Source: a virus | Reading direction: 5' to 3' (one strand) | Length of the DNA: 39,647 nucleotides | IMG/VR virus record: IMGVR_UViG_3300011980_000001 | Coordinates: 1-39,647 of that record | In this document: positions 1 to 33,805 of the stretch, piece by piece | How the letters are laid out: every line of letters starts with the position of its first letter | How positions within the stretch are numbered: position 1 is the stretch's first letter | The notes under the pieces: generated by a model | The model's database searches: none | What the model saw: only the letters and a program-made list of their open reading frames with translations | Told to the model about the DNA's origin: nothing | Program-made: the position numbers and the translations under genes

Positions 1-78
1 TATATGACAGCTTCAGTGTTTTCATCTCGTATTTCCCTTGTCCAGTCTTTAATTTCTTGACAACTGATTAGTGGCTCG
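1..78. repeat. Terminal direct repeat, copy 1 (identical to 39570..39647)
   Basis: Read directly: bases 1..78 equal 39570..39647. The repeat cuts through the start codon and RBS region of the minus-strand nuclease gene, so it looks like the overlap of a circular or circularly permuted assembly rather than a physical DTR. Confidence 0.9.
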
Positions 79-705: not shown

Positions 706-1410
706 TTACTCCTTTACTTCAGTGACTTTAATATTTTTCATCGCCTTGAGTTTTTTGGCAGTAGCTTTAGCACTGTCACGTGCCTCGTCGCTACCGACAA
801 TTTGGATTTCCATAAACTCATCAGCTTCATATACATCTGCACCGATTCCCAACAGGCTTGCGCATTTTTTGAGCGCATCGGTGGCTGCCGCCTTAAAATC
901 ATTACCTAAATCAAGCGGTATTGGTGATTTGGTGTATTCATCTATCTTACGTACACGCTTTGGCTTTCGTTTGCCATTCTTATCAGTTTCATAAATAACA
1001 GTGCCAGTTTCAGTAGTGGCGGCTTTCATTTCCCACTTCACATCAGCACGTCCAAATTGTGTTTTACGAAGTTCAACCCACTCACCGTCAGATTTTACAC
1101 GCCCTATAAGCGTACCTTTGACAACAACTGCGCCTGTCAATTTTGCGACCTCAAATGCTTCAGCAAGCGTAGTCTCAACTTCAAAGCTCCAGTTAAAACC
1201 AAACACGCTATCAAGTACTTTGCGTACATAGCTACCCTTGATGTATGTCCAACTGCCACCACCTTTAGCTGGTCTCTGGTACTTAAATCGTGATGGTGTG
1301 CTGTTCCAGATTTTCTGAATCTGGTTTTGATTCAACAGGCTCGTGGTACGTGTGACCTGTGATATGTCTAATTGTAGCTTCTCAATCTGTTGTTCAATTT
1401 TCTGTGCCAT
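706..1410 (-). CDS. Single-strand annealing protein, Rad52/Sak-like
   Basis: 234 aa with AGGAGG just upstream of the ATG. The N-terminal core RFKYQRPAKGGGSWTYIKGSYVRKVLDSVFGFNWSFEV resembles the Rad52-family annealase core. Neighbours are exonuclease and SSB-like genes. Confidence 0.7.
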   Translation of the reverse strand: MAQKIEQQIEKLQLDISQVTRTTSLLNQNQIQKIWNSTPSRFKYQRPAKGGGSWTYIKGSYVRKVLDSVFGFNWSFEVETTLAEAFEVAKLTGAVVVKGTLIGRVKSDGEWVELRKTQFGRADVKWEMKAATTETGTVIYETDKNGKRKPKRVRKIDEYTKSPIPLDLGNDFKAAATDALKKCASLLGIGADVYEADEFMEIQIVGSDEARDSAKATAKKLKAMKNIKVTEVKE

Positions 1411-2242: not shown

Positions 2243-2977
2243 TTAGAATACCTCTGACGCTGTTACATCTTCTTTAATTCTGTTCATAATTTGGTTTGAT
2301 TTAGCATAAACATCAAGCGCATTATTCACTTGCGGCTTGTATTGTGGCTGCCAGTTTTTGTAATGGTCACGCATGAATGTGAGATAGGCTATACTGATTT
2401 CTTCTGGATATGTTTTGCGCATCTCAGCAATCTTTTTCCAAATAACAGTATGGTTGGTTACTGGCAACGACAGTGCCTTAATGACTTGGCAATAAAGTTT
2501 AGAGATTTCATCATCAACACGACCTGAACGCTTGCGTTCATAGACTGTGTTATCTTTTGTGTTATCTTTTGTGTTATCTTTTGTGTTATCTTTATGAACG
2601 ACCGGATTATCCTGTTGTACAACGACCGGATTATCCTGTTGTACAACGACCGGATTATCCTGTTGATGGGATTTTACGGTTGATGAATAAACGGCTAGTG
2701 TGCGCACTATTCGTCCGTACATTCTACGCTCAACAACATAGCCAGCATTTCGCAGCCGTTTACAAGCTGCCTGAAGACCATCTCGTTTTGTGCCACAAAG
2801 TTTCTGTAACTCATCGGCACGCTTCCAGCAACCCTTTTCACCAAAGCTGGCTATCTCGGCATACAGGATTTTATCGGTTGCTTGCAATGTTTCATCAAGC
2901 AATACCTCTTTTGGTATCCAGACACCAGTAAACTGACGTTCTGGCTCAACGACTTGCTGATTCTCAAAATCATACAT
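2243..2977 (-). CDS. Replication initiator / replisome-organiser-like protein with N-terminal winged-HTH
   Basis: 244 aa. The N-terminal segment ILYAEIASFGEKGCWKRADELQKLCGTKRDGLQAACKRLRNAGYVVERR looks like a wHTH. The central part is encoded by tandem DNA repeats (QQDNPVV x3, KDNT x4). AGGGGA lies 6 nt before the ATG. Confidence 0.6.
   Translation of the reverse strand: MYDFENQQVVEPERQFTGVWIPKEVLLDETLQATDKILYAEIASFGEKGCWKRADELQKLCGTKRDGLQAACKRLRNAGYVVERRMYGRIVRTLAVYSSTVKSHQQDNPVVVQQDNPVVVQQDNPVVHKDNTKDNTKDNTKDNTVYERKRSGRVDDEISKLYCQVIKALSLPVTNHTVIWKKIAEMRKTYPEEISIAYLTFMRDHYKNWQPQYKPQVNNALDVYAKSNQIMNRIKEDVTASEVF
2547..2665. repeat. Tandem iterons inside the replication gene: about 4 x 12 bp (gtgttatctttt, 2547..2594), then about 3 x 24 bp (aacgaccggattatcctgttgtac, 2597..2665)
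   Basis: Repeats read directly. They are in frame with the CDS. Confidence 0.9.
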
Positions 2978-3014
2978 GATGTATCCCCTATTCTACAAAA
3001 CAGACCGCCAACCG

Positions 3015-3078
3015 CAATTGAATTTTGCGATAAGACGGTTAGCGACCTGTTTCGTAATTCAATTGTTATCTTATCGCA
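3015..3078. promoter_or_regulatory. Two interleaved perfect 10-bp inverted repeats in the divergent control region
   Basis: caattgaatt (3015..3024) pairs with aattcaattg (3056..3065). tgcgataaga (3026..3035) pairs with tcttatcgca (3069..3078). The order is A B A' B'. Confidence 0.75.
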
Positions 3079-3083
3079 TTACC

Positions 3084-3112
3084 ATTATACTACACTGCTC
3101 AAGTATAATCAA
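3084..3112 (-). promoter_or_regulatory. Sigma70-type promoter for the replication/early arm (TTGATT - 17 nt - TATAAT)
   Basis: The reverse complement reads cTTGATTatacttgagcagtgtagTATAATgg. The spacer is related to that of the other three conserved promoters. Confidence 0.6.
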
Positions 3113-3191
3113 GATGATTGAACAAAACTACTTTCTTGCGCAATTAAGGTGCTATGATAATCTTGTAAACAAACTAATCAAGGAGGGTTAT

Positions 3192-3689
3192 ATGGCTCTA
3201 TCTTCAAACAAACTCACTGCGTGTGACGTACACGAGGTAACCAACGTCAAACAAGCTGTGCTTGGTACTATAGCGCACACCGCTGATGGTCGTAAGTATC
3301 GCTATGCTAAAAATGGCGGCACTCAATTAGCGGCAGGCGCAACTGTCATGGCTGCGACACAGGCGGCATATACATCGACTGCTTCCAAGAAATTGGCTAT
3401 TGGCGACGCACTTGTACCAACAACTGGCACTGTCACCGCTGCTAATGCACCAAAATATGAGGACGGCACGTTGACAATCAACAACGCCAAATACCTCGCA
3501 AGCGGTGTTACACAAAATGGTGTCATCAGCCTGCAAGACGCTATTGACGTACCTGCTGCAAGTGGTGCAACAACCTCGTTAGCTATTAATCCATATTGTG
3601 GCGTTGTAGCTGGTAGCGCATCGCCTATTGGTACGGCTGAAGTAGTTGTTCCTGCGAACGCTTACTTCTGGGCTTTTGTATCCGCCTAA
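3192..3689 (+). CDS. Hypothetical Ala/Thr/Gly-rich protein (165 aa), possibly a virion or decoration protein
   Basis: AGGAGGG lies 4 nt before the ATG at 3192. The longer track ORF from 2976 overlaps promoter DNA and has no RBS. The gene is followed by its own strong terminator. Confidence 0.65.
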   Translation: MALSSNKLTACDVHEVTNVKQAVLGTIAHTADGRKYRYAKNGGTQLAAGATVMAATQAAYTSTASKKLAIGDALVPTTGTVTAANAPKYEDGTLTINNAKYLASGVTQNGVISLQDAIDVPAASGATTSLAINPYCGVVAGSASPIGTAEVVVPANAYFWAFVSA

Positions 3690-3744
3690 TCTGTGATACA
3701 ATAGCAACAAGCTGGTTACGGAATACCCTTTCTTTTCCAGCGGC

Positions 3745-3776
3745 AAATAGACTGTTTCGGCAGTCTATTTTGTTTT
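3745..3776 (+). terminator. Intrinsic terminator
   Basis: 10-bp perfect stem aaatagactg / cagtctattt with loop tttcgg, followed by tgtttt. Confidence 0.75.
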
Positions 3777-3825
3777 GTGTAATAATTTTGTATAATAAAC
3801 TCATGAACGTAAAAGAAAGGGCACT

Positions 3826-4104
3826 ATGTCTGTAGAAACAACACTTAAGCCACTTCCTGGCTATGCACTAGTAAAGCTAGGCAATCAATATAAATCAGGA
3901 TTATCAACTGAAAAAGAAAAGTACGGCACGAATACAAGTGGTACGTTAGTGGCTGCTGCTTTTGGAATTGAGCACAACATATCAGAAAGAATAATAGGCA
4001 AAGTGGTATACTTCGCTGGTTTTCAGGATGGTGAACCTATCACTGATAACGGCAACGAGTACGTGTTTGTACCTATTACTGAATTAAGGGGGGTAAAAGG
4101 ATAA
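3826..4104 (+). CDS. groES: Co-chaperonin, GroES (Cpn10)-like
   Basis: 92 aa and colinear with GroES: LKPLPGYALVK N-terminal strand, a loop-like STEKEKYGTNTSG, then GTLVAA, GKVVYF and YVFVPITELRGV. AAGAAAGGG SD. Its TAA overlaps the ATG of the next gene. Confidence 0.7.
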   Translation: MSVETTLKPLPGYALVKLGNQYKSGLSTEKEKYGTNTSGTLVAAAFGIEHNISERIIGKVVYFAGFQDGEPITDNGNEYVFVPITELRGVKG

Positions 4105-5591
4105 TGCCAAAATTGTCTACAGTACGCAATATCATCGCTGGTCGTGAACTTGACGACAAAATCAAAGAGGGTGTTGAGAAAATCTACAACGTCGCTCTTG
4201 CATCATACGGCGTGAACTCTGGTAATGTGATGATTGAACACCGCTATGGCGAACCACTGGTGTCACACGACGGTATCACTAATGTCGGTAAGTTAGTAGT
4301 CGAAGATTCAGTCGAAAATATGGTGGTGTCACTAGTGCGCCAAGCAAGTGAAAAAACTAATCGTGATGCCGGTGATGCCACAACGCTTACCGTCATTCTC
4401 TCAAAAGTTGCATACGAGTTTTGGTTGAGCAAGCACCAATTCTTTACGCCACGCCAAATCCAAAAACAGATTGATGATGTAGTAGCAAAAGTTCTTAATT
4501 ACATCAAAGAAAACAAGCACGATACTACAGACGAATTGCTGCGTGGCGTATCACGTATTTCTGCTGGTGATGAGGCTATTGGTGATATGGTATTTCACTC
4601 TGTTAAAGAATCTGGTGAATATGGCGGCATTACAGTAGTTGAAACTGCTGAACCAACTATATCTACAGAAACGGTCAAAGGTTTTACATTCAAAAAGGGC
4701 TTAAAGTCAGTAGCATTAGCAAATGACCTACAGGCTCTGAAAAGCCGTTATACTGAACCAACTGTCATTGTGATGTCAAAGCTAATCACCAAAAATGAGG
4801 ATATTCTGCCCATTCTTGACCAGACAATCATCTCTGGTGCGACTGGCATTGTACTAGTGGCTGATGTGTCTGGACAGGCTCTTGAATCAATTATTGCTAA
4901 CCGTATGAACGGCAAACTTGACATTGCGGTGGTTGAGCCGCCAGCAGTAGACCGTGATATTTTCTTGCAAGACGTGGCACAATACGCAAGCACTGTGGTG
5001 TTCTCTGAGCCAGTCGCTGACTTTGATGTGAACAAGCATTGCGGCTCTGTTGAAGAGGCGTATATTACGCTATCTGAAACAACACTAAACGGCTGCAAAA
5101 CGCCAGACAAACTAGCTGACTATATATCAAATATCAGCTCTGAGGCACGTCTTGAGGTACTCAACGGCAAGACTGTACGTATCTCTGTAGGTGCGCCAAC
5201 ACAAGCTGAGCGCCAAGAACTAAAACTGCGCATTGAGGACGCTGTGTGTGCCGCCAAAACTGCATTAACGTACGGTGTTGTACCTGGCGGCGGTGTATTC
5301 TTGCGAGATATGTTCCGTACGCTGTTTAAGCCAAATGAACAATACAGCGAATTGTCATATTTTACCAAACCATTCAGCCTGCTCACTGGCGACAATGCCA
5401 ATATGATTACCGAATACAAGGACGGTTCTGGTGTTGATATTTACACTGACAGAGGTGTTGATAACATGGTTGCTGCTGGAATTGTTGATAGTGCTAAAGC
5501 TATTGAAGAGGCGGTTGTAAACTCACACTCAATTGCCGCTCAGCTAGTATCAATTAAAACAGCATTAACATTCAAAGAGGATATGAACTAA
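4104..5591 (+). CDS. groEL: Chaperonin, GroEL (Cpn60)-like, shortened and without a GGM tail
   Basis: 495 aa and colinear with GroEL. Matches include SHDGITNVGKLVVEDSVENM ([20 protein letters not shown]), NRDAGDATTLTVIL (NDAAGDGTTTATVL), RISVGAPTQAERQELKLRIEDAV...YGVVPGGGV ([22 protein letters not shown]...EGVVAGGGV) and AAGIVDSAKA (MGILDPTKV). Confidence 0.85.
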   Translation: MPKLSTVRNIIAGRELDDKIKEGVEKIYNVALASYGVNSGNVMIEHRYGEPLVSHDGITNVGKLVVEDSVENMVVSLVRQASEKTNRDAGDATTLTVILSKVAYEFWLSKHQFFTPRQIQKQIDDVVAKVLNYIKENKHDTTDELLRGVSRISAGDEAIGDMVFHSVKESGEYGGITVVETAEPTISTETVKGFTFKKGLKSVALANDLQALKSRYTEPTVIVMSKLITKNEDILPILDQTIISGATGIVLVADVSGQALESIIANRMNGKLDIAVVEPPAVDRDIFLQDVAQYASTVVFSEPVADFDVNKHCGSVEEAYITLSETTLNGCKTPDKLADYISNISSEARLEVLNGKTVRISVGAPTQAERQELKLRIEDAVCAAKTALTYGVVPGGGVFLRDMFRTLFKPNEQYSELSYFTKPFSLLTGDNANMITEYKDGSGVDIYTDRGVDNMVAAGIVDSAKAIEEAVVNSHSIAAQLVSIKTALTFKEDMN

Positions 5592-5593
5592 AT

Positions 5594-5887
5594 ATGTTCA
5601 GTTTGCTCACAATATTACTGCTGGTAGGGCTAAATGTTCAGTTATGGCTCATTGGTCATCTTTTGTCTGAAAACGCCACACACGACGCCACAATGCGTCA
5701 AAAACTAGATGCCATCGAAAAAGATGTGAAAAAACGAGGATTTGTCACACCACCATTTGATGCCGCAAACCCTGACCGCTCTACACGTGGCTCTAGCTCA
5801 CACATCATTCAACGTAAGCCACCAGACCAGATACGTAACGAGAACTTTGAAAAAATAAAGCAGGGACAGACGTATGGGAGTTATTAG
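5594..5887 (+). CDS. Hypothetical membrane-anchored protein (97 aa)
   Basis: N-terminal hydrophobic segment MFSLLTILLLVGLNVQLWLIGHLL. Starts 2 nt after the groEL-like stop. Confidence 0.55.
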   Translation: MFSLLTILLLVGLNVQLWLIGHLLSENATHDATMRQKLDAIEKDVKKRGFVTPPFDAANPDRSTRGSSSHIIQRKPPDQIRNENFEKIKQGQTYGSY

Positions 5888-6110
5888 GGACGGAAAATAT
5901 TACCCAGATGAGCAACCGCCAAAACAACAGGTAAAACCTGTGGTTGCTCAGGTAGCAGCACGTGGTAATATAGACCGTGATTATGAAAACCATGCTCATG
6001 ACCTGATACAGCCATATTTGCCAGACGGCACGCCAAACCCTGACTTCATTGAGTGGTATCCTGAGGACGCTAAAAATTATGGATTTATTCCAGAAACAAA
6101 GGAGGATTAA
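5874..6110 (+). CDS. Hypothetical protein (78 aa)
   Basis: Co-oriented ORF with a 14-nt overlap with the upstream ORF. The RBS is weak, so the start is uncertain. Confidence 0.45.
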   Translation: MGVIRDGKYYPDEQPPKQQVKPVVAQVAARGNIDRDYENHAHDLIQPYLPDGTPNPDFIEWYPEDAKNYGFIPETKED

Positions 6111-6112
6111 CA

Positions 6113-6451
6113 ATGCCTGTAAAAAAATCACCATTCCCAGACCACGCTGAGCTGCGTGTAAAAAGCTACCGCTCAGAGATAATCGTTGATATTGTGACGA
6201 TGAGCGCTGGACTAGATATGGCGATAGCCGCTATCAAGGATGGTAATATTACTAAGAAAACACGTGAGGGACTTCGTGATTTAATTAGTCAAACCTACAT
6301 CTTGTATTCACGCAAGATTGCTCTTGGTATACTCAAGGAAGATGGCTGCGTTGATGATACAGCTAAAATAAGCAATGTATCGATTGCTTTTGACCTGCCA
6401 GATGAATATCACGATGATTTAGTTATATACTATAAACAAGACAAACAATAA
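6113..6451 (+). CDS. Hypothetical protein (112 aa)
   Basis: AAGGAGGA lies 6 nt before the ATG. Last gene of the plus-strand island, followed by a terminator. Confidence 0.6.
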   Translation: MPVKKSPFPDHAELRVKSYRSEIIVDIVTMSAGLDMAIAAIKDGNITKKTREGLRDLISQTYILYSRKIALGILKEDGCVDDTAKISNVSIAFDLPDEYHDDLVIYYKQDKQ

Positions 6452-6467
6452 TTCTTACCAAAATAAA

Positions 6468-6496
6468 ACACCGCCCCTCGCACAGGCGGTGTTTTT
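6468..6496. terminator. Bidirectional intrinsic terminator between convergent units
   Basis: Stem acaccgcc / ggcggtgt with a 9-nt loop. The plus side has a T-run (ttttt); the complementary side has tttatttt. Confidence 0.8.
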
Positions 6497-6554
6497 GTGT
6501 ACTAGATATTCCACTCGTACTGCAGGCACTTATCACCATTCGCATGATGTTTTC

Positions 6555-6893
6555 TTAAATGCCACTTCTTGACCCTACCCATACTCGTAAATACTTTCCT
6601 GACATGTACACACTCCATGGTTTGAAATTTGTACCGCCATTAGATATTTTGTATGCCCAAGCAATGTTAGTAGCTAAGTTTTGCAACTCAGCACACGATG
6701 GGCGACCAGCAATGGTTCGTATCTGCATAGCACCGCAAGATGGGGCGTGCAGCCCGCCAATTGGGTAGTTATCCCCTACAGCGTTAGTGTTACAGCCGCT
6801 CTCTGCTTTGGATATGCGTACGACAGTTTCAACGTCCCAACTATACTTGCTGGCTTCAGCACGTACAGCCTCACAACCCGTTGGCGATGCCAC
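6555..6893 (-). CDS. Lysozyme-like / lytic transglycosylase-like protein (catalytic-Glu motif AESG ... GAMQI)
   Basis: 112 aa from a GTG. Motif ISKAESGCNTNAVGDN...CGAMQI. The reading frame stays open with no start codon for a further 57 codons upstream, to 7064. Confidence 0.55.
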   Translation of the reverse strand: MASPTGCEAVRAEASKYSWDVETVVRISKAESGCNTNAVGDNYPIGGLHAPSCGAMQIRTIAGRPSCAELQNLATNIAWAYKISNGGTNFKPWSVYMSGKYLRVWVGSRSGI

Positions 6894-7030
6894 AGGTACT
6901 TTTGTGGTTGACGTTGCAACTTCCTTGCTTACTTCGTTTTGTAAAGGTGCTTGTTTCTCTTGCGCCTCGCTTTTAATCTTTGCTTGTCTAGTTAGCTCAG
7001 CGGTAGCTTTTTCTCTCTTGGCAATTTCCG

Positions 7031-7534: not shown

Positions 7535-7557
7535 AATCACCCCTCGTAGGGGTGATT
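7535..7557 (-). terminator. Intrinsic terminator after the capsid gene
   Basis: Stem aatcacccc / ggggtgatt with a 5-nt loop, followed on the minus strand by ttttgtt. Confidence 0.75.
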
Positions 7558-7578: not shown

Positions 7579-8661
7579 CTAAGCACCAATTTTAGTGATA
7601 CCAGTAATAACACCCTGACGACGTGGTTGGCGACAAATCAAGTTACCAAGAACAATCAATGCACCAATATCACCAAGTTGATTGACTGGGCTCATGAAGT
7701 CGCGGAGCTGCAAGAATGACGGTTGCTTGATGTCATCATACACACCCTCGGTCACCTGGTTTGCCATATCAACACTCTTCAAGTCTGGTGACAACAGGCG
7801 ACGGAACTCAAGATAGTTTTCGTTCAACCAGAACCAACGACCAGCAGTTGCTTTGTCGTCTGCCACAACAGGCTTACCACGGAAGTTTAAGGCGTTAAAG
7901 CCAGCAGCACCCTTTAGCTCTGTTGCTGGAACTGACGTGCCCGCAGGCGTTTTGCCACTCACACGATTGTAGCCGTTGATAGCGGTTGGGTTGTAGCTGA
8001 CGCTAATTTTATCACCCAGAATAGCCTCAAACATCGACCAGATTGCCTTGGTGGTTAATGCGATAGTTGGTGATTCTTGCTCTGAGCCTGCAGCACTCAC
8101 GTTGTCAAACGTTGATGACAAAAGACCAAAGTTGAAGTTACCACCACTTGCGGCAGTCACGTCACCGTTGACGCTTGGCAATTCAGCACGGCTGATACCA
8201 CCATATGAGCTGGTAGCAGTACCGTTGTCGGTAATCAAGCCAAGACCCTCGATGTCCTTGCCAATACCATAGCCGTACAGCAAGTCACCAATAGCGTTTG
8301 CCAATGAGTTTTTACCCTCATCCAGCTTAGTTGCGACCAGCGACAGCACCTGTTTGTCACCAGCGCCGTTGACAGCCTTTTCAATGCCAGGAATAACAAC
8401 GCTTTGCTCATATGCTTTGACGTACCATTGCATTGTCCGTGTGTTATTGGTTGCTGCTGTGTTGAACTCATCCAAACCGTCGAACGAACCACCAGTCGTA
8501 GAATTGGCAATCGTGATAGGCTGGTCCTCTGTCACACCTTTCCAATTCTTTGGGTTGGAGGTCATACGAGCGGTAAAGATATTAGAGTTGTTCACAAAGT
8601 CTACAATCGACGGCATAATGTCGTTGTAGGTGATACTTGTAACTCGTTCTGAAAATACCAT
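7579..8661 (-). CDS. Major capsid protein (HK97-fold type)
   Basis: 360 aa with an AAGGGAG SD and a dedicated terminator. Patterns QWYVKAYEQSVVIPGIEKAVNGAG...LSLVATKLDEGKNSLANAIGDLLYGYG and FRGKPVVADDKATAGRWFWLNENYLEF resemble Phage_capsid-family proteins. Confidence 0.65.
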   Translation of the reverse strand: MVFSERVTSITYNDIMPSIVDFVNNSNIFTARMTSNPKNWKGVTEDQPITIANSTTGGSFDGLDEFNTAATNNTRTMQWYVKAYEQSVVIPGIEKAVNGAGDKQVLSLVATKLDEGKNSLANAIGDLLYGYGIGKDIEGLGLITDNGTATSSYGGISRAELPSVNGDVTAASGGNFNFGLLSSTFDNVSAAGSEQESPTIALTTKAIWSMFEAILGDKISVSYNPTAINGYNRVSGKTPAGTSVPATELKGAAGFNALNFRGKPVVADDKATAGRWFWLNENYLEFRRLLSPDLKSVDMANQVTEGVYDDIKQPSFLQLRDFMSPVNQLGDIGALIVLGNLICRQPRRQGVITGITKIGA

Positions 8662-8753: not shown

Positions 8754-10514
8754 CTACTCCGCCGCAACTGAATTAAGCATTGACCGTAATGTCTGTAACT
8801 TCCTTTGCGCTTTTGCTTGACTGTCAGTGTTTGTCGGGATAAGCGCCTTAGCCCGTGCCATATCTGATTCAGATAGTGCACCAGATTCACCAAGCGCCTT
8901 TAGTAATGATATACCAACAGATTGTGACTGGTCATTGTACGCTGCAATCTTTGGATTATATGCACCGCCTGTGGCACTATTCAGCAGGTTAGTCAGTGTA
9001 CCACCAGCAACGCCCTGTGCCTCATAATTGCCCAGCATAGAATTAAGTTGTGACATAGCAGTTTCCATATCACCGCCTTTTTTGTTCTTTTTACCAGCAT
9101 TTGTAGCAGCTCGTTTGTCTGCTCGTGTCTCTTTGTTGTCCAGCATGTCAATCATTGTGCCAAGTGCTTTTGCGGCTTTTGCGTTATTATCCATCAGTGC
9201 TGCAACATATGCATTTTCTAACTGGTCACGACTATAGCCGCCAACAGTAAGCTCTTGTTGCGATTGTGTCATCTCTTTCATTGTTTTATTGTTGTTTGGC
9301 GTTTCAGCACTACTTGTCATTGCGTTACCAACGGATTGTACGGGCGGCAGACCATTGTTATTATTGTTGCCGCCACTGCCTAACAGAGATAACGCCCCGA
9401 TACCGCCACCAATCAGTGCGCCCTTTTTGAGCGTATTTTGTGCCTTACCGCTGTCAAAAGCATCAGCTAACTTCAACATTTTTTCACCAGTTTTTTGTGA
9501 CAGTCTCTCGAGAGGTTTGCCAAGAGTGGCGTCAACTACATCGCCAACAACAGGTAAACTTTTTAACTTCGCTGATAAAGCACCACCACCACCAGCATTA
9601 TCAGTCAAGCGGTTGATTTCCTTAATATCTACAAAGTCTTTTAGCTTTGAGCGCATCGCTTGGATAGTTCGTTCATTTGATGGCACATCTGCTATTTCTT
9701 TAGCAAGACGCTTAAAGGCTTCAGCGCCGATATTATCACCACTGCGTACCGCCGATTGCTGTGCGTGCAATAGATTGTCCTTAATAATTTCCCAACCACC
9801 AGCAATATTGCGTGGGTCAACACTATTATCAATACGTGTGTCAATCTCACGTCCCAACTCCTCAAGCGCATTTGCCATATTCTTATTTGGTGTTGCCCCG
9901 CCACGGTAGTCTGCTGCCTTATTCCTAAAAGCTTTTGCAATACCGATAGGGTCAAGGTTGTTAGTGCCAGTAATTCCTAGCTTATCTTGAATAATGCTTT
10001 CTAATTTTGCGTCACTTGCGGTACGTTGAATAGTCTCTCGCAAGTCGTTCAAATCAACATAGTTCTGTGGGTCGCCGACACGTGAAAAGTTTGTACGCAT
10101 ATCATCAATTACGCTACTCACAAGACCCTTGTTTTTACCATCCTTGCTGCCCATCAACTGCTCTGCCAAATCCTCAAGCTTTTTAACATCGCTTGTGCCA
10201 GTTCTCTCATACAGCTTGGTAATAGTTTCTGTAGGGTCACCACCCCTCCCCTTTAACTTGCGTACATCAGCACGAGTAAGATTCATAGGCGCATTCATCC
10301 CTCGTTCACCGCCCTCACGTAGAACATTAGCAATACCTGATGTTTTTTGTGCTGCTGGTAAAATATTATCTAGCACACCGCCGCCATTACTTGCAATACT
10401 AGTAGATATACTATTCGCTACATCATCGCCATAATTAGTAGCAAGGCGTGCCAGTACATCATCACCGTGATTAGCTGCCGCACGTGAAAATAGTTTAGAT
10501 AATCCGCCAAACAT
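8754..10514 (-). CDS. Large virion-associated protein (586 aa), internal/ejection or scaffold-like, function unknown
   Basis: Long co-oriented ORF with G/N-rich low-complexity tracts (GGGIGALSLLGSGGNNNNNG). The N-terminal leader is shared with the ORF at 26565..27731. Confidence 0.6.
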   Translation of the reverse strand: MFGGLSKLFSRAAANHGDDVLARLATNYGDDVANSISTSIASNGGGVLDNILPAAQKTSGIANVLREGGERGMNAPMNLTRADVRKLKGRGGDPTETITKLYERTGTSDVKKLEDLAEQLMGSKDGKNKGLVSSVIDDMRTNFSRVGDPQNYVDLNDLRETIQRTASDAKLESIIQDKLGITGTNNLDPIGIAKAFRNKAADYRGGATPNKNMANALEELGREIDTRIDNSVDPRNIAGGWEIIKDNLLHAQQSAVRSGDNIGAEAFKRLAKEIADVPSNERTIQAMRSKLKDFVDIKEINRLTDNAGGGGALSAKLKSLPVVGDVVDATLGKPLERLSQKTGEKMLKLADAFDSGKAQNTLKKGALIGGGIGALSLLGSGGNNNNNGLPPVQSVGNAMTSSAETPNNNKTMKEMTQSQQELTVGGYSRDQLENAYVAALMDNNAKAAKALGTMIDMLDNKETRADKRAATNAGKKNKKGGDMETAMSQLNSMLGNYEAQGVAGGTLTNLLNSATGGAYNPKIAAYNDQSQSVGISLLKALGESGALSESDMARAKALIPTNTDSQAKAQRKLQTLRSMLNSVAAE

Positions 10515-11437
10515 TAGTAATACCCTCCTTGCTGCATCGCATAATAATCTTCAATTGTCTGTGGTTGTTGCTGTCCACCGCCTAGCAGTCGGCTGCCGCC
10601 ATATAATGCACCGCCGCCTAGTGCTAATTTACCAAAAGTACTTTTTGGCACGAGCGACCGCAAAGCCTCTTGATACAATGCTTTGTCTGGTATCTTGCCC
10701 ATAATACTAGCCATATCGTCAGTACCAACACCAGCCCCAGTCAAGCTGTTCTGCACTAATTTACTGCCACGATTGCGCAACGCTTTGCCGCCATATTTCA
10801 TAGCAGCTGGCATTGCCAATCCAAATGCCGCACCAGTTCCAGCACTGCTCAGTGCGTCACTTAAATTAGTGTCAGCGCCATTTTGGCGTAATGTCTCCAG
10901 ACCGCCGAATGCTGCGCCTGTCGCTGTACTACCTGGAATAGTATAAAGTGCCTTGTTTACTTTGCCCAGCCCACTAGCAACCTTACCCATATTAAGTGCT
11001 TTTGCTGCACCGCCAACAGCAGGTAGTGCGCTAAGCAGTGTCTGACCTGCTGCCCCAATATCGCTCATTACATCCCTGTCCTTATAATTGCCAGTAGCCA
11101 AATCAAGTGCTGCCGTACCTGTTTGCGCAATTGGGTTAAGGATTGAACCAAGCAATCCATCGCCAAAATAGTTATGGCGTTGCTTTTTCATCGTCTCATC
11201 AAACTGCTTTTGCGTGTCGTTGTAGGTGTCGCTATTACGCTGAGCAACTGATTTGATGCTGTCCATAGCATCACCCCATTGATTGTCATCAATAGAGCCC
11301 TTAAACTTGTCACGCATACCACCCATCTTTTGTGACACAAAATCAGCCACAAACTTATCTGTGTACGCTTTGTCTAACGCTTGACGCTGCTCTTTCTCAT
11401 ATGCATCACGCCCTTTACCAAACAACCAATCAAACAT
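10514..11437 (-). CDS. Gly/Ala-rich hydrophobic virion protein (307 aa), internal-protein-like
   Basis: The ATG at 11437 overlaps the upstream TAA (TAATG). Contains G/A-rich hydrophobic stretches and a GGGQQQ tail. Confidence 0.6.
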   Translation of the reverse strand: MFDWLFGKGRDAYEKEQRQALDKAYTDKFVADFVSQKMGGMRDKFKGSIDDNQWGDAMDSIKSVAQRNSDTYNDTQKQFDETMKKQRHNYFGDGLLGSILNPIAQTGTAALDLATGNYKDRDVMSDIGAAGQTLLSALPAVGGAAKALNMGKVASGLGKVNKALYTIPGSTATGAAFGGLETLRQNGADTNLSDALSSAGTGAAFGLAMPAAMKYGGKALRNRGSKLVQNSLTGAGVGTDDMASIMGKIPDKALYQEALRSLVPKSTFGKLALGGGALYGGSRLLGGGQQQPQTIEDYYAMQQGGYY

Positions 11438-22962: not shown

Positions 22963-24237
22963 TTATTTCTTAAAGTTCTTAAATAATCCTGATAGAAAGT
23001 CTACAATAGCTTTTACTAACTTCTCTAGTACACCAACACGCTTCTCTAAGTCGTCATTTGGGTTTGGAATTGGCTTGTCGCTCAGATAGATAGTCTGGAT
23101 TGCTAATTTGCCGCCCTCAAGTACCATCAAATCGTTGTCAACAAGGTGTGTACTGTGTGTTACCCGTACTTTAGCATTAATTGGCAGTACTTCCTGCGTC
23201 ACGCCGTCTTCTAGTCGCAATACAGGCGCTTTCGAACGTGTCCACATATCCACATCAGCGATATCCTTGAGGTTCTTCAGCCATTCTGGCTTCTCACGCT
23301 CTGGCTCTACGGCTGGGACGCCCAATTTATCTGCTGGTATGCCATACGGCAACCCCTTAGTCTTAGCCCAGCTAGAAATGTAGTATTTCTTGCCACCGAC
23401 AGTGGTCTCCTGCACAATATCAATCTGAGTTCCTCTAGGAATAACGTGAGGACCTACGCTCGCTGGCGGATTGGCGAGTAAGTTGAGAACTTTGGCGCCA
23501 TCAGCAGCAATGACTGATAGCTTCTCTCCTGTATAATCACGCCTGTTTTTAATCCACTCTGGCGTGCGTGCTGCCTCTGCTTCACGTCGTTTACGCTCTT
23601 GCAACGCCCCGTATTCTGCACTACCCAGGATATCTGCCTTAATCTGGTCTATTGTCCAGCCTCTCGCCGCTTGATTTTTGTAATGGTTCATGCCTGCCGT
23701 ATCTGGCTCACGCTCTAAAATGCTCAAGAACAGTGTACGGATTTGCTGCTCACTTACTGTAGGCACGCCCTGATGAAAACGGTCAGCAATGGCACGAATA
23801 CGGTTTTTATCAATTGGCGAACATGATGTCGGCGTCCATTCTTTGTGTACATAAATAGGTAGCCGTTTACCGTAAGCCTTTTCCATATCATAATGGAACT
23901 CACCCATCGTCTCATAATCACCATCTGTCAGGCGTGGGTTACACTCATAACCAACTGTAGTTGCGTTACCACGTGCGTTACCTGCGTGCCAAGCGGCATT
24001 CGCTGCATCAACAATCCAAGCAACACGTCCAGTTTCGCCTACAACATGGGCTGATGAGTTGCCGTCAGCACGGCATAGCCAGTTTACGATAACCATGAAC
24101 TGCGGCTGTTGTGCTGGGTCTCCCCACCAGTGGTATGTGATACCATCAATTGTGCGTGGCATTCCATAATAATATGGTACTTGCGCCTGTGGTGTGTAGT
24201 TTGGTGAATTGTATTGAGTTATCTCTTGATATGCCAT
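22963..24237 (-). CDS. N-acetylmuramoyl-L-alanine amidase (Amidase_2/PGRP, T7-lysozyme type) with a DUF4214-like linker and a C-terminal binding region
   Basis: SSAHVVGETG, AAWHAGN, TVGYECNP and VHKEWTPTSCSP give a His/His/Cys zinc site pattern. The middle segment LFLSILEREPDTAGMNHYKNQAARGWTIDQIKADILGSAEY is DUF4214-like. AGGAGG lies 5 nt before the ATG at 24237. Confidence 0.8.
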   Translation of the reverse strand: MAYQEITQYNSPNYTPQAQVPYYYGMPRTIDGITYHWWGDPAQQPQFMVIVNWLCRADGNSSAHVVGETGRVAWIVDAANAAWHAGNARGNATTVGYECNPRLTDGDYETMGEFHYDMEKAYGKRLPIYVHKEWTPTSCSPIDKNRIRAIADRFHQGVPTVSEQQIRTLFLSILEREPDTAGMNHYKNQAARGWTIDQIKADILGSAEYGALQERKRREAEAARTPEWIKNRRDYTGEKLSVIAADGAKVLNLLANPPASVGPHVIPRGTQIDIVQETTVGGKKYYISSWAKTKGLPYGIPADKLGVPAVEPEREKPEWLKNLKDIADVDMWTRSKAPVLRLEDGVTQEVLPINAKVRVTHSTHLVDNDLMVLEGGKLAIQTIYLSDKPIPNPNDDLEKRVGVLEKLVKAIVDFLSGLFKNFKK

Positions 24238-24374
24238 TACCACCTCCTAGTGATATAATCTTTAACTTTATTATATAACGCTCTGACACCAAAAGCCAAC
24301 ATTGTGCCCACAAAAGCACCAACAAGTGCTGCACTTGAGTACCACAATACCCATAACTTCAATAATTCGTTCAC
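24237..24374 (-). CDS. Small single-TM protein (45 aa), holin/antiholin-like
   Basis: Not in the ORF track because it is under 60 aa. GTG start with AAGGAGGGA upstream. Sequence MNELLKLWVLWYSSAALVGAFVGTMLAFGVRALYNKVKDYITRRW. Its TAA overlaps the amidase ATG. Confidence 0.5.
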   Translation of the reverse strand: MNELLKLWVLWYSSAALVGAFVGTMLAFGVRALYNKVKDYITRRW

Positions 24375-27732: not shown

Positions 27733-29874
27733 TTATCCCCCCATCAATCTGCTCAATACGCCAACATCAGGAATCTCAGCTCCGCCCTCTGGCATTTGTG
27801 ATATCGGTGCTTCACTCTGTGGCGGCATAGCTCCAGCGTCGGGCATAGATGGGATTGGCGCACCATTTGGTGGCATACCTTGCGGCGGCATCATTGGTGG
27901 TTGCGGCATTGGTGGCGGCACCTCAGGCGGTTCAGGTGTAATTGGTAAACTTGGGTCGATTAACATGCCCTGCTCATTCGCTGCTTCAAGTTTAGCACGC
28001 TGCGATAATCCAATGACCTCTTGTTCGATATGTTGCAACATCGCTTGCTGATACTCTGGCTTGGCGTACAGGAATTTATCTGTCATAAGCTGCTTGCGGT
28101 GCGCGTGGATATGGTCTGGTGTAATATCATCACGTGGCTGTGCCTCTTGACCATTCATAATCAATGAGAAGTCGATGTAGGCGTCACGGTCGGCAACCTC
28201 GCTCTTAACATCAGACACGAGAGTGTCTGGTGCCATCTTGAACTTCACCAGTGCCTCATATCGTTTGTCTGCGTCTTTAAGTCCCAAATCCTTGAACAGG
28301 TTATACGGGTCAATCAAGCCCATCTTCGCTAGTGCCATACCAATATTCTCACGTCGCTCTTTGTCAATACGCATAATGCTGCCCTGAGATACAGTAATAT
28401 TAGCCACGTCTGGCATACTCTCTCTGGATAGCTGCACAAACATAAAGTTTCCGTCGTTGTCTCTTGTCGAGAAATCGTGCTTGTCAGTGTACCAGACTTT
28501 CATCATCTGCACTAACAGTCTAAAGTAACGATTCAGGCTAAACTCAATCTCTTTGACAATCTCATCTTGCCGTCCGCTTGCTTGCGATTGCATCATTTTT
28601 GCCTCACCAAGCGTACCGACCTCACGCTGTGAATCATCCCCACGGAATTGTGACGGCGTTCCTAAGATATTGTGAATACTGTTTTTGACATCATTCTTGT
28701 CCTGTAGCACGTAATTTGGCAACAAATGAGGCGTAATCTCACCAAATGCACTCTGCACTGGCATATCGTCTTCAGTATCCAAAATAATAATCTGGTTAGG
28801 GTCTCGGGTGATGTTCTCTGCTTGTTCATCAGGAATTGAACCGCTCTTGAAAATCATCAAGCTGTTGGCGGTATCAGCGTTCTCTACAATCTGCCGGCCA
28901 CGCTTATTGAGGATATCCTGTAATGGTATAGCCTGTTCAATAGGTGTGGTCTGGTCAATTAGGTGGCTACCGTCATTGAGATAGTTGAAGAAGATGTACG
29001 GTTTTGTCGGCGTGTCAATAAAGTTTTCAATCTGTACGCCATCATCGTCATACAGATAGTTCGGGTTCTTAATTTTGTCTAAAATAACGTCACGGAAGTA
29101 CCACGCCACACACTCTACAGGCTCATCGCTGCTCTCGTCAGTAAACCAAATCTCATTGTAGGCTATCGTTTGTCCCATTAGCTTTGGCGTCTTGCGTACA
29201 CGCCCCAGTGCTGCCACAATCGCTTTTTCTCGGTGTGGGAAACGGTGAATAAGCCCAGCTACGGTGCTAGTGCATACTTCAGCGACGAACTTTGGCTCAT
29301 CACCTAGCTCACAGTCTTTGTCTAAAATAACGTTGTCTGGGTTAAGCGCTACAGGCACAATATCGTCAACGTCTGGGTCATAGTATAGCTTAATAATACC
29401 AACACGCTTGGTATAAACATTTTTGGCTGCGACTTTCACCTTGCGTGCCAGACTATGGCGCTCGCTATGGATATTAATGGCAGTTTCCAAGTCCTCTGCC
29501 ATGACCATGCTCTGCACCTCTTTGTCCTGCGGCGTCACCTCGCATGATGGGTCACGACCAGTCACATACGCCATCACCGCCTGAGTACCAACGAAAATCT
29601 GATTGTCAACAAACGGCACTTGGTAATTGTACAGCTTGCTAGCATCGATTTGGTAGCCAAGATAATACCGCTCATTCCTCGCCCTGACATTTTCCAAGTT
29701 ATAACCTTTGGTGCTGTTCCAATATGATTGGCTGTCTGTAATCCAACGCTTAAAGTTTGCAATAAGCTCCCTGTCATCTGTCTTAATAGACAAAACAGGT
29801 CTGTCATCAATAATGCCTGTGTCTTTTGTAATGTCGTCTACTGATGAATCATTGAATACTTTTGTCGTGTCCAT
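27733..29874 (-). CDS. Portal protein with a Pro/Met-rich C-terminal tail
   Basis: 713 aa, directly downstream of the large terminase. Size and position are typical of portals. The C-terminal 70 aa or so is P/M/G-rich. Confidence 0.7.
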   Translation of the reverse strand: MDTTKVFNDSSVDDITKDTGIIDDRPVLSIKTDDRELIANFKRWITDSQSYWNSTKGYNLENVRARNERYYLGYQIDASKLYNYQVPFVDNQIFVGTQAVMAYVTGRDPSCEVTPQDKEVQSMVMAEDLETAINIHSERHSLARKVKVAAKNVYTKRVGIIKLYYDPDVDDIVPVALNPDNVILDKDCELGDEPKFVAEVCTSTVAGLIHRFPHREKAIVAALGRVRKTPKLMGQTIAYNEIWFTDESSDEPVECVAWYFRDVILDKIKNPNYLYDDDGVQIENFIDTPTKPYIFFNYLNDGSHLIDQTTPIEQAIPLQDILNKRGRQIVENADTANSLMIFKSGSIPDEQAENITRDPNQIIILDTEDDMPVQSAFGEITPHLLPNYVLQDKNDVKNSIHNILGTPSQFRGDDSQREVGTLGEAKMMQSQASGRQDEIVKEIEFSLNRYFRLLVQMMKVWYTDKHDFSTRDNDGNFMFVQLSRESMPDVANITVSQGSIMRIDKERRENIGMALAKMGLIDPYNLFKDLGLKDADKRYEALVKFKMAPDTLVSDVKSEVADRDAYIDFSLIMNGQEAQPRDDITPDHIHAHRKQLMTDKFLYAKPEYQQAMLQHIEQEVIGLSQRAKLEAANEQGMLIDPSLPITPEPPEVPPPMPQPPMMPPQGMPPNGAPIPSMPDAGAMPPQSEAPISQMPEGGAEIPDVGVLSRLMGG

Positions 29875-29937: not shown

Positions 29938-31554
29938 CTAATTTGTCCGCCAATCGCCACGCTTGCGCTGTTGTGTAGCATTCTTAATGAGCGTTTGGAC
30001 ATCATACCCAAGGTCTTTATACGTCACACCAGTGCCAGCTAAGTAGCTCTGCTGTGTCTTTTTCAGCTTGAACGATGGGTTGAATAATTTACCTCGCACT
30101 TTATTTGCGGTCATGATGGTGTAAAACAGTGCGTCAAGGGCGTGGTCTTCATTGTTAGCATCTAACTCTTCACCGCCGCTGTCCTTGGCGTATACGATGG
30201 TCGGCAACGTATCGATGAGGTATGAGCAGTTTCGGTGTATCTGAATGCCTGGTTTACCGTCTGGTGAATCAGCGAACATATCGTGCAAGCGGTACACGCT
30301 AGCTTTTTTCAGGTCACGATTGAGCTTGTCGGCTTTGACTATTTTTGGCTGTTTGTCGGGTGATAACTTCTTGATTTCATTCTTGATGACATCAGCAATA
30401 GGCTCTGTACCACCTAGGTGGCTGAATGCATCGTGGGGTAGTGCAATAATGTCCACTGGCTCTCTATCCTGTTGTTCTGCAATCTCCTTTGCCCACCATT
30501 CAGGGCTTTTGTGATTGTCGTGCCGTTCACGATAGATAAACGCACGCTCGTGTGTTTCAGTGATTTGGTCAAATGTAGCATACAGTAACACACACTCGTC
30601 ATTGTAGCCCCAGTCCATGCCCATAATCTTCCATGAGCCATCAAACTGTTTGCGGTCAATGCCCCAATCACTAAATCTATCAAACACGTGCTTATTGCGC
30701 CTGAACTCCTCAAACACTGCGCCAAACTGAATGTCCCAGTTTCCCCAACGCCACGCCTCATACAGTTCTGGGTCGCTATTCTTCAAGCTTTCTAGCTGTT
30801 GAACATAAACAGGGTCGCTCGCAAGCAGAATAGGGTTGCTGTCGATTGTGGCTGGTATGTACGCACGCCAGATGCCAGTTTCCCGCTCAATGACTGTCTG
30901 CCAATATGTCACCTGTGGCTTTCCATAAATATCTGTCCAGTAATATTTATGCTTCAATACCTCGCATTTCTGTACATCTGGTGTGACAAATCGCCGCTTA
31001 ACCCATGCCATGCCAACACCACCAGGGTTAGCTGTGTTGAACACCTGAGGGAATAAATCGTTATACTTGCTACGTGCTGAGCTAATCAACTTCTCATACA
31101 TCGACTCTTTCGGTATCTGTGTCAGCTCCTCAATATTGATACGTGAATACTCGTGTCCCTGGTACTTCGTGTAGGCATCATCATCCTTGAGATGTCCACC
31201 AAGCACACGCCCTGTGTGTTTACCACTAATAATCATCGGGTGTCGCCTTAGTTTAGCACCAAAGATACGATAGGCTTGACTGGCACGGTCTTCAAAGTCT
31301 GATAGGTCTTCAGCGTTGCGGCGAATAACAAGCTGCTTCGTACGAGGGTCTTTGAACCTGTCGCCAATGATAGCGATACTCACGTCAGTTTTTCCACCAC
31401 CACGTGCACCGCCGTACAGTATCTCACGGTAGCGTCTGTCTCGTGATAACGCTACAGCTAGCTGCTGCGGTCCTGGTAGCGGCGTCCAGTAGCCTATGTC
31501 ACGGTACTTTTGTAGCTCACTCGTTATTAGTTCTGGCTTTAGAAATTTGCTCAT
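29938..31554 (-). CDS. terL: Terminase large subunit
   Basis: Walker A motif LYGGARGGGKT. 538 aa from the ATG at 31554 (AGAGGG 8 nt upstream). The track ORF extends to 31593. Confidence 0.85.
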   Translation of the reverse strand: MSKFLKPELITSELQKYRDIGYWTPLPGPQQLAVALSRDRRYREILYGGARGGGKTDVSIAIIGDRFKDPRTKQLVIRRNAEDLSDFEDRASQAYRIFGAKLRRHPMIISGKHTGRVLGGHLKDDDAYTKYQGHEYSRINIEELTQIPKESMYEKLISSARSKYNDLFPQVFNTANPGGVGMAWVKRRFVTPDVQKCEVLKHKYYWTDIYGKPQVTYWQTVIERETGIWRAYIPATIDSNPILLASDPVYVQQLESLKNSDPELYEAWRWGNWDIQFGAVFEEFRRNKHVFDRFSDWGIDRKQFDGSWKIMGMDWGYNDECVLLYATFDQITETHERAFIYRERHDNHKSPEWWAKEIAEQQDREPVDIIALPHDAFSHLGGTEPIADVIKNEIKKLSPDKQPKIVKADKLNRDLKKASVYRLHDMFADSPDGKPGIQIHRNCSYLIDTLPTIVYAKDSGGEELDANNEDHALDALFYTIMTANKVRGKLFNPSFKLKKTQQSYLAGTGVTYKDLGYDVQTLIKNATQQRKRGDWRTN

Positions 31555-32002
31555 CAATATAGCCCTCTGGTAACGTTGGAATGACAAAACCACGGATTAG
31601 TGGTGCGGCTTTTTCATCAGCCTCAATACTGATGTCCTGCTTGGCTCGTCCCTCCGTGCGGTCTGTAATTTCTTTGGTTTCTTTAAGGCTCTCATCGTCA
31701 TCACGGATAGCACGCTCAATACGCCGCTTGGCAATAGCCTCTGCGTTGGTAGTTGGCTCAAACTTTTTGAACTCCTCGGGCGTCATCGCCAGCATACGAT
31801 TGTACTGATAACTGACGCTGTTTTCTTTTTTCCATTTGCCGTTACTGCGGTTCTGTGGATTATCGCCAAACCCACCTTTTCCTGTAGGATTAGGCACTAC
31901 TCCAGGCAACCACGCACCTGTTGATTTTCGTGGCACATCCTGTTCTTGCCTTGTAGAACTATCCACCTCTGTTGTCCCATCTGCATTAATCTTCTGCATC
32001 AT
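31517..32002 (-). CDS. terS: Terminase small subunit-like protein
   Basis: 161 aa from ATGATG at 32002 (AAGGAGGG upstream). Motif PGVVPNPTGKGGFGDNPQNRSNG. Lies immediately upstream of terL and overlaps it. Confidence 0.55.
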   Translation of the reverse strand: MMQKINADGTTEVDSSTRQEQDVPRKSTGAWLPGVVPNPTGKGGFGDNPQNRSNGKWKKENSVSYQYNRMLAMTPEEFKKFEPTTNAEAIAKRRIERAIRDDDESLKETKEITDRTEGRAKQDISIEADEKAAPLIRGFVIPTLPEGYIDEQISKARTNNE

Positions 32003-32735: not shown

Positions 32736-32768
32736 TTTTACCCTTTCCACTTAACATAACCTGTTTAT

Positions 32769-32777
32769 ATTATACCA
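32769..32777 (-). promoter_or_regulatory. Extended -10 promoter (TGgTATAAT) for the late/packaging arm
   Basis: The reverse complement reads aaatTGGTATAATataaac. The -35 box is poor (TTTATT). Confidence 0.45.
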
Positions 32778-32794
32778 ATTTATCTCTATAAAAT

Positions 32795-33802: not shown

Positions 33803-33805
33803 TTG

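Follow-up and report, generated by a model that had tools for sequence, protein, structure and literature searches.

A Cpn10–Cpn60 chaperonin gene pair conserved in a lineage of ~38–42-kb phages with a Saccharibacteria-associated member

The virus record IMGVR_UViG_3300011980_000001 of IMG/VR (39,647 nucleotides, analysed at full length and referred to here as the window) carries, at positions 3826 to 5591, two overlapping genes for a co-chaperonin of the Cpn10/GroES type and a shortened chaperonin of the Cpn60/GroEL type. An earlier note on this DNA, made from the sequence alone, had read the two open reading frames (ORFs) as a GroES–GroEL-like pair in a phage genome of less than 40 kb. Here we find that the phage chaperonin pair is real and probably functional, and that, inherited vertically, it characterizes a lineage of ~38–42-kb phages in which the only member with an assigned host infects Saccharibacteria (TM7). 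The identity of the genes, their folds, the catalytic residues of the larger protein, the coupling of the two genes and their conservation across the clade carry this reading, and we hold it to be quite likely that each gene has the identity given here and that the two work as a pair. An exact direct repeat of 78 bp occupies both ends of the window (1–78 and 39570–39647), so the window is a complete genome, assembled as a circle, whose unit is 39,569 bp long; it encodes terminase, portal, major capsid protein (MCP) and endolysin, and the earlier note’s description of a phage genome under 40 kb is correct.

Results

The larger gene encodes a short group I chaperonin

The 495-residue product of the second gene matches the Pfam family Cpn60_TCP1 (PF00118) at 92.4 bits (cutoff 34.3, E = 3.5e-26) and PHROG 5725, “chaperonin groEL”, at E = 1.5e-101. 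A sequence search of the PDB returns bacterial and mitochondrial GroEL/Hsp60 proteins down to E = 1e-45, with far weaker matches to the chaperonins of phages EL (gp146, 6tmt, 5e-18) and OBP (gp246, 6hdd, 1e-10) and to the thermosome (9e-9). An AlphaFold2 model built with 50 family members (predicted local distance difference test score (pLDDT) 87.4, predicted template modelling score (pTM) 0.75) has the three-domain fold, and Foldseek superposes it on GroEL and mitochondrial Hsp60 (mtHsp60) over all three domains (E ~1e-37, template modelling score (TM) up to 0.86); the top 50 fold matches are all GroEL or mtHsp60. Chance cannot account for similarity of this degree. By Pfam, PHROGs and fold, the protein is thus a group I Cpn60, colinear with GroEL through the equatorial, intermediate and apical regions as the earlier note had proposed. 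A group II, thermosome-like chaperonin was considered and rejected, given the gap between the thermosome and GroEL matches (9e-9 against 1e-45), the composition of the top 50 fold matches and the absence of a built-in helical lid.

Individual residues were mapped by alignment to authentic Salmonella GroL, and their invariance was assessed over 50 family members. The ATP pocket retains D52, D87, D398, GGG414-416 and D495, all of them invariant or nearly so in the family, with a single pocket change, G88 to A. The motifs singled out from the sequence are confirmed against Salmonella GroL: AGDATT stands for AGDGTT (holding D87), IEDAV for VEDAL (D398), VVPGGGV for VVAGGGV and AGIVDSAKA for MGILDPTKV (D495). 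On apical helices H and I, the hydrophobic residues L234, L237 and L259 are retained and V263 is replaced by I. Most of these pocket and helix residues do not vary among the 50 family members. Overall identity to Salmonella GroL is 27%, or 24.7% in the family-wide alignment.

At 495 residues the phage protein is 53 shorter than the 548-residue GroL, close to the shortfall of about 50 that had been estimated. Relative to GroEL it lacks the GGM tail, ~13 residues from the K/L helical hairpin, and two equatorial segments at ~429–435 and ~460–475; the C-terminus reads ...ALTFKEDMN, without GGM repeats, again as described. A C-terminal Gly-Met-rich tail is typical of housekeeping bacterial GroELs, though not universal. 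K105, A109, E434, R452, E461, S463 and V464, the classical inter-ring contacts of GroEL in the SR1 literature, are all substituted or deleted in the alignment with the phage Cpn60. Around these positions the alignment is gappy and its entropy high (2.43 bits); their loss is a lead, not a result, pointing towards a single-ring or altered double-ring assembly.

The smaller gene encodes a very divergent Cpn10

Through its predicted fold and its family, the 92-residue product of the first gene is identified as a very divergent protein of the Cpn10/GroES type. A database search recovered 36 homolog clusters, mostly on contigs of 38–41 kb, and 27 of 35 family members match Cpn10 (PF00166) at E <= 1, the best at 3.1e-6. 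The small ORFs in the orthologous position of two distant relatives, L005 and L008, whose Cpn60s are 37–40% identical to that of the window, reach 24.5 and 22.1 bits against the Cpn10 gathering score of 21.1; the small gene of a further phage, MW202566, scores 17.9 bits against the same cutoff. The protein also aligns colinearly, end to end, with Salmonella GroES.

The AlphaFold2 model of the 92-residue protein shows a GroES β-barrel with a flexible loop. Its top 24 Foldseek matches in the PDB are all Cpn10/GroES proteins (probability 0.98–1.0, TM up to 0.69). In BFVD, “10 kDa chaperonin [Podoviridae sp. ct9A73]” ranks first (34% identity, E = 6.9e-7), and dozens of viral GroES entries follow. 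Confidence falls below a pLDDT of 50 only at residues 21–27 and 29–34, and this low-confidence, flexible segment coincides exactly with the position of the GroES mobile loop: residues 21–34 align to GroES S21–K34, with G25-L26-S27-T28 opposite G24-I25-V26-L27. Within it, the putative loop S24-G25-L26-S27-T28-E-K-E-K-Y33 (SGLSTEKEKY) does not vary among 34 sequences whose identity is otherwise 51–96%. It is the segment of lowest entropy in the family (0.11 bits, against 1.0 overall), and ten invariant columns lie within residues 22–33. The roof region (residues 44–57) is the most variable part, in sequence and in length (2.8 bits).

The two genes stay together and diverge together

The junction of the two genes reads AAAGGATAATGCC, in which the stop codon TAA (4102–4104) and the start codon ATG (4104–4106) share one nucleotide, exactly the TAATG overlap of a 92-residue and a 495-residue ORF that the earlier note had described. 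It is preceded by a purine-rich, Shine-Dalgarno-like tract (AAGGGGGG at 4086–4093 and AAAGGA at 4096–4101). Because the Cpn10 stop overlaps the Cpn60 start, both proteins are probably made together from one mRNA, and their translation would be coupled.

A tight junction between the two genes was found in every relative examined (Table 1). Across these relatives, Cpn60 and Cpn10 co-diverge from the proteins of the window.

Table 1 Identity of each relative’s proteins to those of the window, and the Cpn10–Cpn60 junction
Relative	Cpn60 identity	Cpn10 identity	Junction
TM7 phage (L001)	59%	47%	14-nt overlap
L007	48%	30%	8-nt overlap
L005	40%	22%	1-nt overlap
L008	39%	25%	1-nt overlap
L011			11-nt overlap
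MW202566.1	31%	29%	2-nt gap

The operon marks a phage lineage

The operon recurs across a large metagenomic clade on contigs of ~38–42 kb. The short Cpn60 family comprises 809 matches at E <= 1e-20 and more than 100 clusters; clustering at 50% leaves ~13 clusters in the close Cpn60 clade. Among the best 120 of the 809 matches, all but six fragments are 476–515 residues long, and their contigs top out at 38–42 kb. The next tier, beyond the close clade, consists mostly of proteins of 510–545 residues with 33–35% identity, and ten of these that were looked up lie on contigs of up to 24–48 kb. Both out-group contigs examined are phages with terminases, one of them with a Pfam-recognised Cpn10 upstream of Cpn60. 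On an out-group phage contig of ~41 kb (L012, 5401–6001), a 109-residue ORF is inserted between a Pfam-recognised 92-residue Cpn10 and Cpn60 and abuts the Cpn60 start; it could be a second lid-like protein.

Throughout its length, the window is colinear at the protein level with TM7 phage DolZOral124_53_65 (MG269973.1, 38,840 bp, circular). Identities by tblastn are 71% for TerL, 68% for the portal protein, 72% for the MCP, 57% for Cpn60 and 43% for the Cpn10-like protein. Megablast of positions 3000–7000 of the window against GenBank phages gave no match, so the relationship is seen only at the protein level. The MG269973.1 record gives a Saccharibacteria (TM7) metagenome-assembled genome (MAG) as host, and Shaiber et al. 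cite DolZOral124_53_65 as the phage linked to a TM7 genome by Dudek et al. 2017. A literature search on chaperonins of Saccharibacteria phages found no paper on the operon.

With the window Cpn60 as a single query, a search of the 185,579 species genomes of GTDB returned no close relative. A scan of GTDB with an MCP alignment matched only phage contigs binned into MAGs of Prevotella, Eubacteriales and Thermoguttaceae; with relatives placed in MAGs of three unrelated phyla, the taxonomy of a bin is no reliable guide to the host. One such contig, JAFTFC010000001.1 (71,160 bp, from a “Prevotella sp.” MAG), holds two identical MCP loci (L013 and L014) 40,113 bp apart and is a concatemeric assembly of a related ~40-kb phage genome within a bacterial MAG.

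Operon organization

The chaperonin pair sits in a plus-strand island (~3192–6451) in a genome that is otherwise minus-strand (Table 2). From its layout, the chaperonin region is apparently a self-contained plus-strand transcription unit, with a promoter-like element at ~3789, five genes and a terminator at 6465–6495. The extended −10 element TGTATAAT has a weak −35, and an automatic promoter scan did not pick it up; its function as a promoter is putative, as is that of the terminators. The hairpin at 6465–6495 would close the operon against the convergent minus-strand genes.

The first gene of the island (3192..3689) precedes this unit. Its product is conserved in the TM7 phage (CQ476_25, 47% identity by tblastn), and a weak match to a PHROG “virion structural protein” (E = 0.007) is the sole clue to its annotation. 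The position of this gene varies: in distant clades, the gene upstream of the pair is on the minus strand and encodes 147–149 residues.

Table 2 Features of the chaperonin operon and other genes of the window
Feature	Position	Strand	Basis or remark
Divergent Cpn10/GroES-type co-chaperonin, 92 aa, ATG start	3826..4104	+	fold and family evidence
Short group I chaperonin, Cpn60/GroEL-type, 495 aa, ATG start	4104..5591	+	Pfam, PHROG, fold
Putative mobile-loop codons, residues 21–34 (QYKSGLSTEKEKYG)	3886..3927	+	low pLDDT, lowest family entropy, GroES alignment
Stop/start overlap TAATG	4102..4106	+	sequence
Ala/Thr/Gly-rich protein, ~166 aa	3192..3689	+	first gene of island; ORF list
Terminator-like hairpin followed by T-run (putative function)	3745..3770	+	between the 3192..3689 ORF and the chaperonin genes; consensus scan and sequence
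Extended −10 promoter-like element TGTATAAT (putative)	3789..3796	+	~30 nt upstream of the ATG of the Cpn10-like gene; sequence reading
Shine-Dalgarno-like AGAAAGGG	3814..3821	+	4 nt before ATG 3826; sequence
97-aa ORF, hydrophobic N-terminal segment, same operon	5594..5887	+	conserved in TM7 phage
78-aa ORF, same operon	5874..6110	+	conserved in TM7 phage
112-aa ORF, last gene of plus-strand island	6113..6451	+	conserved in TM7 phage
Strong GC-rich hairpin, A-run/T-run flanks, putative bidirectional terminator	6465..6495	.	scan: 12 pairs, 6 GC; sequence
Major capsid protein, 360 aa, candidate client	7579..8661	-	PHROG 9953 “major head protein”, E = 8.7e-69
Exonuclease/Erf-like protein	706..1410		window gene
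Replication initiator	2243..2977		window gene
Amidase endolysin	22963..24243		window gene
Portal	27733..29874		window gene
Large terminase	29938..31593		window gene

The capsid gene lies beside the chaperonin island

Close to the operon lies the gene for the MCP, whose product also gives tblastn matches to the MCPs of Mx8, Mx9 and BUCT555. Within the late operon the gene takes the far end, beside the chaperonin island and ~19 kb away from the portal and terminase genes. In the TM7 phage and in two (L005 and L008) of the three distant relatives examined, it neighbours the chaperonin operon in convergent orientation. No protein of the lineage is more conserved than the MCP, which keeps 67–72% identity in relatives whose Cpn60 is only 39–59% identical; the chaperonin pair therefore changes far more rapidly than the client that is most plausible for it. 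MW202566.1, though distant, carries a homolog of the window MCP. The capsid protein is the leading client candidate because of the analogy to T4 gp31 and gp23, the adjacency of the genes and the co-inheritance with a homologous MCP even in MW202566.1. We hold with low confidence that the likeliest client may be the MCP, or else another late protein such as the endolysin.

Several features near the capsid gene were noted in passing. A perfect palindromic hairpin at 7535–7557 (AATCACCCCT..AGGGGTGATT) lies directly downstream of it and has a terminator score on both strands. A minus-strand gene (6555–6893) lying between the capsid gene and the chaperonin operon encodes a 112-residue protein in which an SLT_3 lysozyme-like domain is recognised (PF18896, E = 1e-10); this protein comes in addition to the amidase endolysin. 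In L008, a rumen-type relative, a 739-residue protein with ART-PolyVal and Zeta-toxin domain matches (9120–9512) adjoins the capsid gene. The TM7 phage counterpart of the window MCP, CQ476_33, is annotated as a “homeodomain-like protein”; the present comparison corrects two annotations of that phage, CQ476_26 being a Cpn10-like co-chaperonin and CQ476_33 the major capsid protein.

Other genome content

No tRNA genes or Rfam families were found in the window, and no ORF of tape-measure size; the capsid protein is similar to that of Mx8. Searches of the large structural ORFs against Pfam gave no information on tail type, and the podovirus-like label of the earlier note was not confirmed. Two neighbouring minus-strand genes, 11437–12369 and 12427–13248, both match phrog_37153, a PHROG of unknown function (E = 2e-73 and 9e-57), and from this similarity appear to be a tandem duplication inside the structural module. 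The region ~32000–36000 is AT-rich (GC 0.355–0.38, against ~0.44 elsewhere) and holds only short ORFs; it may house early genes or be hypervariable.

Discussion

Proposed mechanism and alternatives

We infer ring assembly, Cpn10–Cpn60 binding, the identity of the client and independence from the host chaperonin. A divergent Cpn10 lid and a shortened Cpn60 ATPase would be co-translated from one mRNA. By analogy with GroEL/GroES, Cpn60 subunits would assemble in rings of seven, with non-native protein bound by apical helices H and I, and the conserved pocket of D52, D87 and D398 would bind and hydrolyse ATP. A heptamer of the cognate Cpn10 would cap the ring through the invariant, flexible SGLSTEKEKY loop, and the pair would fold phage late proteins, the capsid protein being the leading candidate.

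A number of observations weigh against this reading. Searched as a single sequence, the 92-residue protein matches nothing in Pfam at E <= 1, the Cpn10 profile PF00166 included, and nothing in PHROGs; the “GroES layout” claimed for it is borne out by fold and family evidence but is invisible to these single-sequence searches. Its model is of moderate confidence (pLDDT 70.6, pTM 0.63), and no Foldseek E-value against the PDB is better than 7e-3. Searched against PDB sequences, the family profile finds Mycobacterium tuberculosis Cpn10 only at E = 0.58, ranked below an unrelated protein, and hhalign comparisons of the family with Salmonella GroES and with the MW202566 small protein give non-significant probabilities below 3%, in a test that was underpowered because the family has an effective number of sequences (Neff) of 2.2 and the targets were single sequences. 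In the putative mobile loop, the canonical hydrophobic tripeptide I25-V26-L27 is L-S-T, with only the first position hydrophobic, so that its binding in the apical groove cannot be taken for granted. The groove itself carries Y199 to L, Y203 to A and F204 to L changes, as well as V264 to A, and judged from the alignment it is hydrophobic yet remodelled. The chaperonins EL gp146, OBP gp246 and AR9 gp228 need no co-chaperonin (PMC9598537). As to the host, the assignment of the lineage rests on one GenBank record, and the MAG bins, mutually inconsistent in phylum, were rejected as host evidence.

Some of these points would fit a Cpn60 that works alone, as do EL gp146, OBP gp246 and AR9 gp228, with the 92-residue protein reprogramming host GroEL in the manner of gp31 and CocO or serving another role. 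The characterized phage chaperonins are lidless (PMC9598537), that of phage EL does not bind GroES (PMC7185714), the loop tripeptide of the window protein is polar, and T4 gp31 is among the PDB fold matches of the 92-residue model (rank 34, TM 0.65). The Cpn60 sequence is, however, far nearer to bacterial GroELs than to EL or OBP, as the E-values given above show, and the hydrophobic residues of helices H and I are retained. The overlap is conserved, the genes co-diverge down to 31–40% Cpn60 identity, and in the immediate clade Cpn60 without the small gene was never seen. We therefore regard a solitary Cpn60 as improbable, and the reading of both genes as a working pair as the better account.

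A recently captured host groESL, carried as an auxiliary gene or moron that boosts host proteostasis without phage-specific adaptation or client, is a very improbable origin for the pair. Group I chaperonins are cellular genes, and some viral GroELs, ~70% identical to Bacteroidetes GroEL, were probably transferred from hosts (Marine et al., PMC5649160); here, no close cellular relative was found (27% identity to Salmonella GroL, and none among the GTDB genomes). The nearest proteins outside the clade, at 33–35% identity, lie instead on the phage-sized contigs of 24–48 kb described above, the two examined contigs carrying terminases, while the pair itself is conserved, and in synteny, throughout a deep clade of phages whose members have lineage-specific deletions and loss of the GGM tail in common. 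Recent capture was rejected on these grounds. That the 92-residue ORF is no co-chaperonin, its GroES likeness being a chance resemblance of a small β-rich protein beside a real Cpn60, is scarcely credible and was likewise rejected: the silent Pfam and PHROG searches, the profile match at E = 0.58 and the hhalign result would allow it, but fold matches in the PDB and BFVD are uniformly Cpn10, 27 of 35 homologs match Cpn10 and orthologs pass its threshold, the alignment to GroES runs end to end with the disordered loop rightly placed, and the position directly 5′ of cpn60 is conserved.

Taking the two genes as a working pair, a bolder version can be framed, in which they form a minimal orthogonal chaperonin: a shortened, possibly single-ring Cpn60, stripped of the canonical inter-ring contacts and the GGM tail and with a trimmed K/L hairpin, and a polar-loop Cpn10, dedicated to folding the highly conserved capsid protein in ultra-small, genome-reduced Saccharibacteria. 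With a polar SGLSTEKEKY loop in place of IVL, there would be no cross-reaction with host GroEL/GroES. We consider this version doubtful; if true, it would be the first complete phage Cpn60/Cpn10 machine for which a client is defined, and would serve as a compact model system.

Significance

A full two-component chaperonin is not limited to jumbo phages. The pair takes up ~4.5% of the genome across a lineage of ~40-kb phages, an expense that implies strong selection, probably arising from a capsid protein or another late protein that is beyond the host folding machinery, in a host that is plausibly a genome-reduced Saccharibacterium. Because the phage Cpn60s studied so far are all lidless, a pair with a cognate and unusually polar lid loop would be a useful system for the evolution of Cpn10–Cpn60 recognition. 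The remaining interest lies in the invariant polar lid loop, in the trimmed Cpn60 with its lost inter-ring residues and in the possible orthogonal minimal system in Saccharibacteria phages.

Comparison with known chaperonin systems

The kind of operon described here is already known, and the same operon has an annotated relative in the databases. In the TM7 phage, CQ476_26 and CQ476_27 form the same operon at the same genomic position, and there too the small gene overlaps the Cpn60 start. The annotation of that phage covers Cpn60 only (480 residues, with the overlap of 14 nt) and leaves the Cpn10-like gene as a “hypothetical protein”. Among deposited phages, Cpn60 occurs in 208 of 50,697 records, nearly all of them genomes of at least 60 kb; examples are 60-kb Flavobacterium podophages, 72-kb Cellulophaga podophages and Vibrio phages of 145–350 kb. 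Among the ~95 of the 208 records listed, the complete genomes below 45 kb with a Cpn60 are MG269973, MW202566 and MW202497. The earlier note’s description of such a pair in a small genome as unusual accordingly holds for deposited phages, where few carriers are below 45 kb; it does not hold for metagenomes, where the pair marks the large ~38–42-kb clade, nor as a claim of novelty, with the TM7 phage Cpn60 already annotated and viral GroES>GroEL operons described in 2017 (PMC5649160).

Bacterial groESL likewise has the order groES>groEL, a three-domain Cpn60 and a β-barrel Cpn10 with a flexible loop. Identity to the phage pair is ~25–27% for Cpn60 and ~24% for Cpn10, and the genes that overlap in the phage are separated by a 43-nt spacer in Salmonella groESL. 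The phage Cpn10 differs from GroES in its loop (G-L-S-T against G-I-V-L) and in its roof hairpin, which is short and hypervariable.

Related in kind are the operons of virioplankton and of small uncultured phages such as MW202566.1 (39.0 kb), in which the adjacent small gene and groEL are already annotated. Marine et al. 2017 found viral GroES>GroEL operons to be common in viromes, with a co-chaperonin on 133 of 337 Cpn60-bearing virome contigs, 63 of these in the order GroES>GroEL; a polar residue occupied the loop tripeptide’s second or third position in 23% of viral GroES, and roof-hairpin deletions occurred in some viral GroES clusters (PMC5649160). Like the window, these operons have adjacent Cpn10 and Cpn60 genes in canonical order, polar loop substitutions and altered roof hairpins. 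They belong to a distant, aquatic clade, however, with Cpn60s ~28–31% identical to that of the window and of canonical length (541 residues in MW202566.1), and the small heat-shock-protein neighbour of many virioplankton contigs is not seen beside the window operon.

That both homologs are encoded by some phages was also stated by Bracher et al. 2020 (PMC7185714). In the literature searched, we found no biochemically characterized phage pair of Cpn60 and Cpn10, which is not proof of absence. As the earlier note had it, the characterized phage GroELs come from jumbo phages, namely EL, OBP and AR9 (PMC9598537, PMC7185714). Like the window Cpn60, EL gp146, OBP gp246 and AR9 gp228 are phage ATPases of the Cpn60 family without a GGM tail; unlike it, they are encoded in genomes of more than 200 kb with no adjacent Cpn10 gene. 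The OBP and AR9 chaperonins form single rings, and a single ring is a possibility for the window Cpn60 too, given its lost inter-ring residues.

T4 gp31 and RB49 CocO are likewise phage proteins of the GroES fold with very low sequence similarity to GroES. They work with host GroEL, in phages without a Cpn60 of their own. At 111 residues, gp31 has a longer mobile loop than the window Cpn10, and it lacks the roof hairpin. It serves the folding of the major capsid protein (PMC5649160), the same type of client that we propose for the chaperonin pair of the ~38–42-kb phages.

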